IMG/VR virus record: IMGVR_UViG_2778261247_000018
Origin: a virus
Lineage: Duplodnaviria > Heunggongvirae > Uroviricota > Caudoviricetes
DNA length: 4,319 nucleotides
Strand: one strand, 5' to 3'
Position 1 is the first letter of the stretch, and the number at the start of each line of letters is the position of its first letter. The notes below the pieces were generated by a model. That model was not told the origin of the DNA. It saw only the letters and a program-made list of their open reading frames with translations, and did no database searches. Positions 1-3,219 of the stretch are shown here, piece after piece. The position numbers were made by a program, and so were the translations under genes.

Positions 1-1134
1 TCTGGTGTGCTGACAGAGGCTGCCATTGACGAGCCACGATTTGAACGTGATGGCCTGCTTATTGAGGGGCAAAGAACTAATCTTCTGCTTAATTCAACAA
101 ATCCATCTAAATGGAATAAGTCAAGCAATCTGGAACTCACAGAAATATCCACGGATTCTTTTAATTTTACTTATGGTAGATTTACTGTAAAAGATACTCT
201 TATTGGTCAAACAAGTGCGATTAGTATCGTAACGGTTTCTGGCAGTAAAGGATTTGATGTCACAGGTGATGAAAAATATGTGACCATTTCATGCCGTGTC
301 AGAAGTGATGTTGAAAATATAAGGTGTCGTTTAAGATTTGAACATCATGATGGTTCTACTTACACTTTTTTGGGAGATGCTTACCTCAATTTATCAACAC
401 TTTTAATTGAACTAACTGGTGGTGCTGCAAATCGTATTATTTCAAAGGCAGTAAAAGATGAGGCTACTGGTTGGATTTTCTTCCAAGCTACAATTAATGC
501 ACTGGATACTGAGAGCATGATTGGTGCGATGGTTCAGTACGCTCCAGTAAAAGGTTCAGGCACAGTATCCGGAGACTATCTGGATATCGCAACTCCACAA
601 GTGGAAGGTGGATCAAGTGCTTCGTCATTTATTGTAACTGATATAACTGCAAGCACTCGCGCAAGCGATATGGTGACAGTCCCAATCAAGAATAACCTTT
701 ATAATCTTCCTTTTACAGTTCTTTGTGAGGTACATAAGAACTGGTATAAAACGCCAAATGCAGCACCGCGTGTTTTTGATACCGGCGGTCATCAAACCGG
801 AGCGGCTATTATTCTTGGCTTCGGTCGTTCAACAGATTACGACGGATTTCCTTATTGTGATATAGGTTTGGCTAACAGACGGGTAAACGAAAACGCATCG
901 CTTGAAAAAATGGTTATGGGGATGCGTGTAAAGTCAGATCAGTCTACGTGCTCAGTAAGTAACGGGCGTATATCCAGCGAAACAAAAACCACATGGTCAT
1001 ATATTCAGAACTCCGCAATTATCCGTATTGGAGGCCAGACTACAGCCGGGTTACGCCATTTATTTGGTCATATCAGGAATTTCAGAATATGGCACAAGGC
1101 ATTGACTGATGCTCAGATGGGGGAGTCAATCTAA
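1..1134 (+). CDS. Phage tail fibre / receptor-binding-like structural protein, C-terminal portion (5' end outside window); C-terminus resembles a LamG / concanavalin-A-like lectin domain
   Basis: The frame is open from base 1 (codons 1-3 and 4-6 are tct ggt, no stop), so the listed GTG at 7 is probably internal. Stop TAA at 1132-1134. The C-terminal motif ...LFGHIRNFRIWHKALTDAQM is, from memory, typical of LamG-like jelly-roll domains in phage tail proteins. Lies directly upstream of a recognisable tail fibre gene on the same strand, with the next gene overlapping its stop (TAATG). Confidence 0.55.
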   Translation, partial: SGVLTEAAIDEPRFERDGLLIEGQRTNLLLNSTNPSKWNKSSNLELTEISTDSFNFTYGRFTVKDTLIGQTSAISIVTVSGSKGFDVTGDEKYVTISCRVRSDVENIRCRLRFEHHDGSTYTFLGDAYLNLSTLLIELTGGAANRIISKAVKDEATGWIFFQATINALDTESMIGAMVQYAPVKGSGTVSGDYLDIATPQVEGGSSASSFIVTDITASTRASDMVTVPIKNNLYNLPFTVLCEVHKNWYKTPNAAPRVFDTGGHQTGAAIILGFGRSTDYDGFPYCDIGLANRRVNENASLEKMVMGMRVKSDQSTCSVSNGRISSETKTTWSYIQNSAIIRIGGQTTAGLRHLFGHIRNFRIWHKALTDAQMGESI

Positions 1135-1415
1135 TGAAAGATTTAACACTCAAATTTGAAGACAGGGCCGACTTTTCGGCCTTTATGGATAGCACTGGCT
1201 ATTATGATGACGAGTCGATGCAGGATAATATTCTTATTGACGTGATAGGTAACGTGTACAAAGAAACCGGAGAACTGACTGAAGATGGCGAACCGGTATG
1301 TGTTAAGGAAGACGGATATTTTGTAAACGTGCGCATCATTAATGATGTGAAAACACCGTCATTATTCGATGAATACGCGGTTGCTGTTGAGCATCAACTT
1401 CGTGGCTGGATGTGA
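1134..1415 (+). CDS. Hypothetical small acidic protein (93 aa), translationally coupled to the upstream fibre-like gene; possible fibre assembly chaperone or adaptor
   Basis: ATG at 1134-1136 overlaps the upstream stop (TAATG). Shine-Dalgarno GGGGGAG at 1119-1125 with about 8 nt spacing. Stop TGA at 1413-1415, followed 9 nt later by the next gene. Protein is rich in D/E with no hydrophobic segment. I recognise no family; the functional suggestion is by position only. Confidence 0.55.
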   Translation: MKDLTLKFEDRADFSAFMDSTGYYDDESMQDNILIDVIGNVYKETGELTEDGEPVCVKEDGYFVNVRIINDVKTPSLFDEYAVAVEHQLRGWM

Positions 1416-1424
1416 GGAAGGAAA

Positions 1425-2465
1425 ATGGCTACATCGACAGTAATTCCTGATGATATCAAAACGCTAAAATCCGACGTTAGCAAATTAAAAACCGATCAAG
1501 GAAACTACGCAACAAAATCTTATGTAGACAATAAAACAACATGGAATGGTTATTGCAATGTAATCTATGATCAAAAAACATTGCCAACAACTGGAACTAT
1601 ATTCAGCGGTAAGCTGCATTTGTCAAATAAAACTGGTGAAACGGAAAACGCTTCTAGTGACATATATACCAGAAAAAATATTGACGGTACAAAAGATACA
1701 ATGACAAGGATTGTCACACACAATGGAACAAAAGGTATCTTTTGGGACTTTAGTGATCTTTACGGAGGAACTTTAATTTTCCCTGGTACTTCAGGTTATC
1801 TGAAAATGGGGAACTGTCTCATGTCGTATGGGGATCGTGTAGATAATGCCCTGATTAAATTTGATTATACAGACACATTACAGATCAAATATGCTAATCA
1901 CGGGTCGACCATGACATTAAACACACAGGGAACCGCTTATGCTGGTGTTACTGCTAAATTGTGGGGCAACTCTAGCCGTCCGGTTGTTTATGAAGTCGGT
2001 GTTGATGGTGGCGCTTATATGTTCTATGCGCAGAAAAATACCGATAACACCTATATGTTAAGCGTTAATGGTGCATGTCATGCCACCGCATTTAACCAGC
2101 ATTCCGACCGGGATCTGAAAGACAACATTCAGGTGATCGATAATGCAACCGACCGCATCCGTAAAATGAACGGCTATACATACACGCTTAAAGAAAACGG
2201 TATGCCCTATGCAGGTGTCATTGCACAGGAAGCTCTGGAAGCAATCCCAGAAGTTGTAGGTTCCGCAATGAAATATCAGGACGGTGCAAGCGGATCGGAA
2301 GGTGAAGAAGGTGAACGTTATTACACAGTAGATTATTCTGGTGTTACTGGCTTGCTTGTTCAGGTAGCCAGAGAGTCAGACGACAGAATAACAGTACTGG
2401 AAGAAGAAAACGCAGAATTAAGGCAAAGATTATCTGCAATTGAGGCGACGCTTGCGTCTAAATAA
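1425..2465 (+). CDS. Tail fibre protein with C-terminal intramolecular chaperone (peptidase S74 / endosialidase-chaperone-like) auto-cleaving domain
   Basis: RBS AGGAAGG at 1415-1421, ATG at 1425, stop TAA at 2463-2465. The C-terminal ~120 aa contain ...NQHSDRDLKDNIQVID... followed by a long helical tail (...EENAELRQRLSAIEATLASK). The Ser (codon 2103-2105, residue 227) and Lys (codon 2118-2120, residue 232) are spaced as in the Ser-Lys dyad of endosialidase / T5 pb1-type chaperone domains, as I recall them. Confidence 0.8.
   Translation: MATSTVIPDDIKTLKSDVSKLKTDQGNYATKSYVDNKTTWNGYCNVIYDQKTLPTTGTIFSGKLHLSNKTGETENASSDIYTRKNIDGTKDTMTRIVTHNGTKGIFWDFSDLYGGTLIFPGTSGYLKMGNCLMSYGDRVDNALIKFDYTDTLQIKYANHGSTMTLNTQGTAYAGVTAKLWGNSSRPVVYEVGVDGGAYMFYAQKNTDNTYMLSVNGACHATAFNQHSDRDLKDNIQVIDNATDRIRKMNGYTYTLKENGMPYAGVIAQEALEAIPEVVGSAMKYQDGASGSEGEEGERYYTVDYSGVTGLLVQVARESDDRITVLEEENAELRQRLSAIEATLASK
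2103..2462 (+). other. Predicted intramolecular chaperone / autoproteolytic domain of the tail fibre (cleavage expected at Ser227, leaving a mature fibre of about 226 aa)
   Basis: S-D-R-D-L-K motif with Ser and Lys five residues apart, then a conserved-looking helical C-terminus. Domain boundaries are approximate. Confidence 0.65.
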
Positions 2466-2476: not shown

Positions 2477-2794
2477 ATGCGCCCCGTTTTATTGGGTAGG
2501 ATGAAAATGGATATAACACCTTTTCTTCATGCGCTTTGTGCTGTGGCTGCGCAGGTACTGATTGGCCTTTTTACCGGAAACTGGGCTTACGGTGCGATAG
2601 CCGGTTGTACGTTCTTCATTGCGCGTGAACACACCCAGGCAGAATATCGCTGGATTGAAATGTTCGGGCATGGCAAGCGAATGAATATGCCGTGGTGGGG
2701 CGGTTTTGATCCGCGCGCGTGGGATGTAGCAAGCCTGATGGATTTTGCTGTGCCGGTGGTGGCGTGTCTGCTGATCTGGATGTTGATCCGTTAA
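2477..2794 (+). CDS. Small two-helix membrane protein (about 96-105 aa) in moron position; function unknown
   Basis: ORF 2477-2794, stop TAA at 2792-2794. ATG at 2507 has the better RBS (AGGA at 2498-2501, 5-nt spacer), so the true start may be 2507. Two hydrophobic segments (ALCAVAAQVLIGLFTGNWAYGAIAGCTFFIA and FAVPVVACLLIWMLI) flank a Trp-rich loop. Hand-counted GC of 60-nt lines is about 48-58% here against 32-37% in much of the fibre genes. Confidence 0.6.
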   Translation: MRPVLLGRMKMDITPFLHALCAVAAQVLIGLFTGNWAYGAIAGCTFFIAREHTQAEYRWIEMFGHGKRMNMPWWGGFDPRAWDVASLMDFAVPVVACLLIWMLIR

Positions 2795-3175: not shown

Positions 3176-3191
3176 CTGTGTTTGTATACAG
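3176..3191. promoter_or_regulatory. LexA (SOS) box proximal to the dinI-like start: CTGTGTTTGTATACAG (minus-strand reading CTGTATACAAACACAG)
   Basis: Matches the gammaproteobacterial LexA consensus CTG-N10-CAG (CTGTATATATATACAG) at 12 of 16 positions on the minus-strand reading. Sits inside a 20-bp near-palindrome TACTGTGTTTGTATACAGTA (3174-3193), 16 nt upstream of the dinI-like ATG. Confidence 0.75.
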
Positions 3192-3203
3192 TATTATTTT
3201 TAA

Positions 3204-3219
3204 CTGTATGGATAAACAG
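3204..3219. promoter_or_regulatory. Second, distal LexA (SOS) box: CTGTATGGATAAACAG (minus-strand reading CTGTTTATCCATACAG)
   Basis: CTG-N10-CAG with 13 of 16 matches to CTGTATATATATACAG on the minus-strand reading. Its CTG is 28 bp from that of the proximal box, and it lies 2 bp past the integrase stop codon (3222-3224). Confidence 0.7.

Follow-up and report, generated by a model that had tools for sequence, protein, structure and literature searches.

A lambdoid prophage side tail fibre with a predicted lectin-like C-terminal domain, followed in tandem by a second short fibre

The stretch of 4,319 nucleotides analysed here (the window; IMG/VR virus record IMGVR_UViG_2778261247_000018, Caudoviricetes) begins inside an open reading frame (ORF), in which a sequence-only reading had recognized a possible receptor-binding protein (RBP) with an ending similar to LamG or concanavalin A (ConA)-like lectin domains, upstream of a second fibre. 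Starting at base 1, frame 1 of the plus strand runs open for 377 codons, up to the TAA at 1132-1134; the left edge of the window cuts the ORF, and the GTG at base 7 is a mechanical start call, not a real one. The fragment matches PHROG 1419 ('tail protein') end to end (E 1e-181), and two protein searches returned, respectively, 1073 homologues and 636 cluster representatives at 50% identity, so that the partial ORF is a real gene, matched far beyond chance. The chromosome of Escherichia coli VTB97074v, a chicken isolate (NZ_CP178675.1), is 100% identical to the window and contains the full gene as a single intact ORF of 792 codons (L003:10756-13134); the window starts at L003:12001, and its positions 1-1134 supply the last 377 codons and the stop. 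The prophage of which the window forms the right end is lambdoid and lies inserted beside dusA; its genes are, in order, tape measure, M/L/K/I homologues, gpJ, lom, the fibre, a gene for a protein of 93 amino acids (aa), a 346-aa fibre gene and a small membrane-protein gene, and then, on the opposite strand, dinI and int. Outside the window, the full 792-aa protein contains the PF08400 'prophage tail fibre N-terminal' domain (223.5 bits); its first 340 residues are 59% identical to lambda Stf (orf-401), and it has an Ala/Ser/Thr-rich tandem-repeat shaft. On the strength of this anchor, of the identity to lambda Stf and of the repeat shaft, we assign the protein by sequence as the side (lateral) tail fibre of the prophage, with the window holding its distal half; recovery of the full gene, with its lambda Stf-type N-terminal anchor, thus places the fragment in a tail fibre, not in a capsid or enzyme protein. 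The features of the fibre referred to in the text are as follows.

1..1134, plus strand: C-terminal 377 codons and stop of the 792-aa side tail fibre (open frame; PHROG 1419; PF08400 and lambda Stf identity in the full gene).
58..672, plus strand: D1, residues 20-224, a beta-sandwich similar to carbohydrate-binding modules (CBM), or 'GTA head spike fibre' domain (NF048003, family profile, Foldseek).
673..1131, plus strand: D2, residues 225-377, a predicted LamG/pentraxin-like beta-sandwich of the ConA-like lectin superfamily (Pfam via homologues, family profile, AlphaFold2, Foldseek).
1060..1119, plus strand: LFGHIRNFRIWHKALTDAQM, residues 354-373, the motif pointed out in the sequence-only reading, which is the last beta-strand and helix of D2 (invariant columns, end of a DNA match, co-variation of the tail).

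The RefSeq/PGAP annotation cuts this intact 792-codon gene, whose translation shows zero stops or frameshifts, into four: an N-terminal piece marked 'pseudo', an ORF of 146 aa on the minus strand, an out-of-frame ORF of 109 aa, and a 'head spike fiber domain' protein of 417 aa. The annotation may have been misled by the shaft, which contains tandem repeats of 189 nt and 21/42 nt.

A lectin fold of D2 is supported both by sequence profiles and by the predicted structure. The Pfam family Laminin_G_3 (PF13385, with a gathering threshold of 27.6 bits) is matched at E<=0.01 by 36 of 51 diverse homologues (best 2.2e-12), and at 24.9 bits by the mEp460_4F5 homologue over its residues 560-681; the lectin-like C-terminus proposed from the letters alone, weak when the window sequence is scored by itself (17.5 bits), is clear at the level of the family. 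In its D2 part, a family profile built from 51 diverse homologues of the fibre tip matches an S-layer-associated domain (4qvs, 3e-9), the CBM40 of NanA (4c1w, 5.5e-6), pentraxins (4.5e-4 to 1.5e-3) and the Hc domain of botulinum neurotoxin (BoNT; 4.6e-3), while the single window sequence gave a marginal match only in a search of the PDB. Given close homologues (67-96% identity) in a shallow alignment, AlphaFold2 (AF2) predicted D2 as unfolded, at a pLDDT (predicted local distance difference test) below 50; with a deep alignment of cluster representatives 25-74% identical, pLDDT was 93 and the predicted template modelling (TM) score, pTM, was 0.89, pLDDT within D2 being about 90. Foldseek aligned this D2 to C-reactive protein (CRP, 1lj7) with probability 1.0 over 159 columns (target-normalised TM 0.57, rmsd 4.2 Å), and further matches were a SAP-like pentraxin (0.50) and, likewise with probability 1.0, 3flp, the LG domain of SHBG (1f5f, 0.53), the CBM40 of the sialidase NanC, and the LG/LNS domains of laminin and neurexin; the predicted fold of D2 is that of a two-sheet jelly-roll sandwich of the LamG/pentraxin type. 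In a library of viral structures the two-domain tip formed by D1 and D2 superposes on coliphage tail fibres with a query-normalised TM of 0.87-0.95, and on many proteins of uncultured phages that are labelled as ConA-like lectin/glucanase. D2 also has the strand-helix motif found at the C-terminus of LamG domains, G-x-[IV]-x-x-[FL]-R-[IV]-W-x-x-x-L-[TS]-x-x-[QE]. It differs from the known LamG, pentraxin and CBM40 domains in being fused to a phage fibre and, for the window sequence, in falling below the Pfam gathering score. In the SCOP and Pfam classifications, one ConA-like lectin superfamily comprises galectins, LamG domains and pentraxins.

The preceding domain, D1, passes the NCBIfam model NF048003 (GTA_spike_fiber; 59.4 bits against a curated cut-off of 36 bits, E 6e-16), residues 20-221 being aligned to positions 1-181 of the 182 in the model. 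The family profile matches residues 43-281 of Rcc01080 (GhsB), the head-spike fibre of the gene transfer agent (GTA) RcGTA, with E 4e-49, and, with E about 1e-18, peripheral domains in two baseplate proteins of Pseudomonas myophages, Pa193 gp46 and E217 gp45; matches of the predicted D1 in Foldseek were 9b45, 8env, Pa193 gp46, and CBM4, CBM6 and CBM22 modules. Binding of capsular polysaccharide by Rcc01080 is experimental (PMC10218006, PMC7296036), and the family name 'head spike fibre' stands for a shared polysaccharide-binding domain and is not the sign of a capsid role for the fibre. The likeness to Rcc01080 consists in the homology of this capsule binder to D1; the differences are that Rcc01080 is a single chain on capsid vertices, that its anchor is a Leu-Gly repeat at the N-terminus, and that with its 325 aa it has no room for D2. 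In the structure of Rcc01080 (6tb9) only residues 2-10 are resolved.

The most conserved stretch of the tip is the terminal motif of D2, RHLFGH(I/V)RNFRIWHK, in which columns G356, H357, R359, N360 and W364 are invariant in the alignment of homologues; the linker that precedes D1, PLPDVWIPFNDSLDM, is also highly conserved, and by their sequences both segments look like junctions for the exchange of modules. Window positions 1-1109 are 91.8% identical in DNA to the virulent T5-like Salmonella phage vB_Si_CECAV_FGS017 (L005), in the fibre tip only, and the match ends at base 1109, inside the terminal LamG motif: this level of identity, and the position at which it stops, suggest that temperate and virulent phages exchanged tip modules recently. 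In close E. coli relatives the variation of D1 is independent of that of D2, as in P0009 (D1 56%, D2 95% identical) and P0040 (D1 95%, D2 50%), and across IMG/VR loci D1 is 34-96% and D2 32-99% identical to the window beside a near-invariant 93-aa gene. On sequence, this is how specificity modules that can be exchanged would be expected to vary.

Proteins with the D1-D2 unit are 370 to 1480 aa long; the unit always forms their extreme C-terminus, and is joined to a variety of N-termini (PF08400, Phage_tail_fib, Mtd_N, Tail_spike_N, and an anchor of the depolymerase type). It is present in 208 records of the phage collection, distributed over six groups, namely lambdoid phages, Drexlerviridae (T1-like), Dhillonvirus, Queuovirinae, T5-like Markadamsvirinae and rV5-like Vequintavirinae, and parts of the window are matched by 3983 of 5426 complete E. 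coli genomes. A homologue with 70.7% identity was detected by mass spectrometry, together with its S74 partner, in particle preparations of the T5-like phage SIA3lw (PMC12752171).

Two observations concern the records in which the tip is found. Versions of 598 aa from E. coli prophages have another N-terminal anchor, homologous (E 6e-28) to solved phage 'depolymerase' tailspikes (7vyv, 7vz3, 7lzj), and because of this N-terminus the tip can be said to be combined with anchors of the tailspike type as well. Several GenBank records named 'Campylobacter phage' or 'Listeria phage' (H68, H70, H71, H133-H135, H142, H152) carry fibre cassettes of rV5-like or coliphage type; these records, some of which are unannotated fragments, look mislabelled or contaminant.

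Downstream of the tip the window contains two further components of the cassette.

1134..1415, plus strand: 93-aa protein, PHROG 1361 (its start overlaps the fibre stop, TAATG).
1425..2465, plus strand: second short fibre of 346 aa, with no tail-anchor domain and with a C-terminal self-cleaving chaperone (PHROG 4563, E 9e-209; Peptidase_S74 at residues 227-278, E 6e-14).
1425..1529, plus strand: N-terminal peptide of the second fibre, MATSTVIPDDIKTLKSDVSKLK..., which is conserved and is presumed to serve for docking (residues invariant across six fibres).

The 93-aa gene occupies the position of tfa in lambda and comes directly after the ORF ending in D2 in 140 of 142 loci; its protein is held by 181 records of the phage collection, and has zero relatives in Pfam, NCBIfam or the PDB and no Tfa domain. 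The fibre gene is probably translationally coupled to that of its partner. In the IMG/VR loci the 93-aa sequence is independent of the D1/D2 allele; the final ~10 residues of D2 do co-vary with the 93-aa type, which may reflect simple linkage. The mEp460-type protein is 53% identical to the window type; scans of IMG/VR with the FGS017-type and XY3-type proteins found 0 and 2 loci, respectively, too few for use.

That the downstream fibre is real, as had been assumed when two candidate RBPs in tandem were proposed, is borne out by its PHROG and Peptidase_S74 matches. The window-type 93-aa gene is followed by a second fibre, 13 nt downstream, in 76 of 77 loci, while an adjacent second fibre is found in 0 of 47 loci with the mEp460-type gene, and the rV5-like FFH2 also has D2 and the 93-aa gene without one. 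Six second fibres with unrelated bodies share the residues M1, T3, T5, I7, P8, D10, I11, L14, K15, S19 and L21; all these second fibres begin with the peptide M-x-T-x-T-x-IP-x-DI-x-x-LK and end in a Peptidase_S74 chaperone; the peptide T-x-T-x-IP-x-DI-x-x-LK occurs on second fibres of 151 to 581 aa, in the window and in L001, L004-L006, L008, L141, L142 and L144. In FGS017 and in the phage IrisVonRoten this peptide stands in place of the N-terminus of DT571/2 LtfB, and in the first protein D1-D2 is fused to a T5/LtfA anchor. The second fibre lacks a virion anchor but has this conserved peptide at its N-terminus, and docking on the first fibre is, by sequence, the simplest explanation. When the docking site was sought by comparing cassettes with and without a second fibre, the PLPDVWIPFNDSLDM linker was conserved in both and gave no discrimination.

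Among known systems the closest is IrisVonRoten (Bas32, Tequintavirus), whose Gp22 is 64% identical over all 377 residues of the window. Gp22 is followed by a homologue of the 93-aa protein (H130) and then by a fibre that begins MVTKTVIPTDITKLK and has a C-terminal chaperone; a cassette of this type (D1-D2 tip, 93-aa protein, TVIP-anchored fibre) is complete, and in the same order, at window positions 1-1134, 1134-1415 and 1425-2465. In a published AlphaFold-Multimer model, Gp22 is the proximal fibre, with a protruding C-terminal 'galectin-like' domain as a possible extra receptor-binding domain (RBD), and the T-shaped fibre Gp24 is attached to it (PMC11990801); the tandem arrangement of two candidate RBPs seen in the window is therefore that already published for Gp22/Gp24. 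The differences are in the anchor, which is of the T5 pb1/LtfA type in Gp22 and of the lambda-Stf type (PF08400) here, in the second fibre, which is a 574-aa T-shaped protein with two RBDs in IrisVonRoten and a short fibre of 346 aa here, and in the location of the present cassette in a temperate prophage. The galectin-like call for Gp22 agrees with the lectin fold found here for D2, because galectins share the ConA-like lectin superfamily with LamG domains and pentraxins. The window fibre is thus a typical representative of a lateral-fibre cassette that is widespread, has been annotated and was recently modelled, and the expected architecture is confirmed.

With lambda Stf/Tfa the fibre shares the position after J and lom, PF08400, the repeat shaft, and a small gene after the fibre gene, but the distal halves are unrelated: similarity ends at residue ~340, beyond which lambda has the orf-314 part and Tfa, and a search of the window fibre for lambda-type distal features (homology to orf-314 or T4 gp37, and a Tfa chaperone) was negative. 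The LtfA/LtfB system of DT57C and DT571/2 (PMC4728585, PMC10713586) is similar in having tandem fibre genes, an anchorless second fibre thought to hang on the first, and an S74 chaperone, and the body of the second fibre of FGS017 is 61% identical to residues 185-507 of LtfB from DT571/2. LtfA, however, has its own S74 chaperone end and no D1-D2 tip, there is no 93-aa gene between ltfA and ltfB, and the docking N-terminus of LtfB is similar to phiEco32 gp15 and unrelated to the TVIP..DI..LK peptide; since the docking N-termini are unrelated, the joint in the window, if any, differs from that of LtfA/LtfB. Membership in the branched fibres of DT57C/DT571/2 type, which have a docking region similar to phiEco32 gp14 in the first fibre and a gp15-like N-terminus in the second, was rejected, as BLASTP of the tip and of the second fibre against LtfA and LtfB of DT571/2 gave a significant match in the S74 region only. 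Two other candidate precedents were set aside: the Stf of Gifsy-1, which binds Gal II in the core of lipopolysaccharide (LPS), is an orthologue of lambda Stf with a different distal half, and none of the lectin-like heads in the RBPseg atlas could be identified as belonging to the D1-D2 tip family.

These results can be combined in a scheme of how the fibre might work. The 792-aa protein would attach to the tail tip by its lambda-Stf-type N-terminal domain, extend by the repeat shaft and end in a rigid D1-D2 tip, which would bind reversibly a surface polysaccharide (O-antigen, capsule or LPS core) in a primary step of adsorption, to be followed by the binding of gpJ to the terminal receptor. 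Phages would swap D1 and D2 independently, like specificity modules, and the second fibre would probably dock on the first, to give a lateral fibre with two RBPs, in a branched or serial arrangement, and a second specificity. From the sequence comparisons and the predicted folds we consider it likely that the tip binds surface polysaccharide in this reversible way and that the second fibre adds a second specificity. As lateral fibres decide passage through the layer of O-antigen or capsule, their tips matter for the prediction of host range and for engineering.

Several points weigh against this scheme. The window sequence itself is matched by Laminin_G_3 below the Pfam threshold, over the last 48 residues (325-372, E 0.0048), and ConA-like folds also include protein binders, such as BoNT Hc and the LNS domains, or enzymes. 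The AF2 model is that of a monomer, and says nothing of the arrangement of the domains on a trimeric shaft. Close relatives differ less in D2 than in D1, a pattern compatible with a structural role no less than with binding; across relatives D1 is at least as variable as D2, and for this reason D2 may not be the main determinant of specificity. The O16 specificity of IrisVonRoten has been ascribed to the second fibre, not to Gp22 (PMC11990801), and our search of the literature found no paper in which ligand binding by D1 or D2 was measured for any member of the family.

Some of these points would be accommodated if D2, with or without the 93-aa protein, were mainly a structural joint for the peptide of the second fibre, specificity residing in D1 and in the second fibre, an explanation that partly overlaps the one we favour and that, on balance, we regard as unlikely. 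It would account for the conservation of D2, above all of its C-terminal motif, the most conserved part of the tip, for a second fibre that has a conserved N-terminal peptide in place of a tail anchor, and for the co-variation between the 93-aa type and the final ~10 residues of D2, and it is in line with the attachment of Gp24 to Gp22 in the published model (PMC11990801). However, the mEp460-type loci and FFH2 keep D2 and the 93-aa gene where no second fibre is adjacent, the same pair of 93-aa protein and second fibre occurs beside D2 alleles of no more than 32-45% identity, a recombination junction inside the conserved motif can explain how the tail co-varies, and cassettes with and without the second fibre show no distinguishing segment before D1. 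A related suggestion, which we put forward only tentatively and hold to be somewhat doubtful, is that the D1-D2 tip, the 93-aa protein and the T-x-T-x-IP-x-DI-x-x-LK fibre form together a portable, uncharacterised branching joint, distinct from that of phiEco32 gp14/gp15 (LtfA/LtfB). In such a joint the 93-aa protein and/or the C-terminal helix of the lectin-like domain would hold the second fibre, and the whole would have travelled between phages that are temperate (lambdoid) and virulent (T1-like, T5-like, Queuovirinae and Dhillonvirus); if so, the lectin fold would double as a binding domain and a docking platform.

The remaining explanations differ from the preferred one, binding of a surface polysaccharide by the tip, in the ligand, in the activity or in the location of the protein. 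A protein receptor, for example an outer-membrane porin, would be compatible with the LamG/LNS and BoNT Hc domains among the fold matches, which bind proteins, and with the link of the Stf of Ur-lambda, which has the same N-terminus, to OmpC (PMC11990801); against it, the sole characterised relative of D1 binds capsule, D2 is matched best, in the profile search, by domains that bind carbohydrate or phosphocholine, namely CBM40, the pentraxins and an S-layer-associated domain, and the lateral fibres of the phage groups that carry the cassette are generally linked to O-antigen (PMC8594841), so that this ligand appears quite improbable. Even less credit can be given to an enzymatic tip, a ConA-like glucanase or lyase depolymerase cutting surface polysaccharide: the superfamily does include GH16 glucanases and jelly-roll lyases, and there are weak profile matches to beta-glucanase (E 0.35) and to an arabinanase accessory domain, but no significant match to a catalytic family was found in Pfam, NCBIfam or the PDB, the ExDxxE motif of GH16 type was not seen in residues 225-377, and the top fold matches are non-catalytic lectin domains. 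The chance that the protein is a capsid decoration (a head spike fibre) is slighter still: NF048003 and the RefSeq product name 'phage head spike fiber domain-containing protein' are in its favour, but the RefSeq name derives from the domain model, the intact gene has a lambda Stf anchor and is placed between lom and fibre genes, the N-terminal (I/L)-G repeat of RcGTA that binds the base of the head spike is absent from the window fibre, and the PHROG and phage annotations all assign a tail role.

In the rest of the window, the fibre cassette is closed by a 95-aa protein (PHROG 1443, positions 2507-2794, plus strand), a three-helix membrane protein as judged by eye, which is 89-99% conserved across loci with or without a second fibre, far above the adjoining fibres. 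A scan for sigma-70 promoters and terminators gave nothing above background. An inverted repeat of 18 nt (83% complementary) lies at 2810-2845, between the convergent membrane-protein and dinI genes, and is probably a bidirectional terminator; at about 2835-2915 the RefSeq annotation places a tiny pseudogene remnant of a 'capsid protein'. Finally, between the start of the dinI-like gene and the stop of the integrase there are two palindromes similar to LexA boxes (CTGT-N8-ACAG, at 3176-3191 and 3204-3219; 0.07 expected by chance), a sequence feature that suggests SOS control of the prophage dinI.

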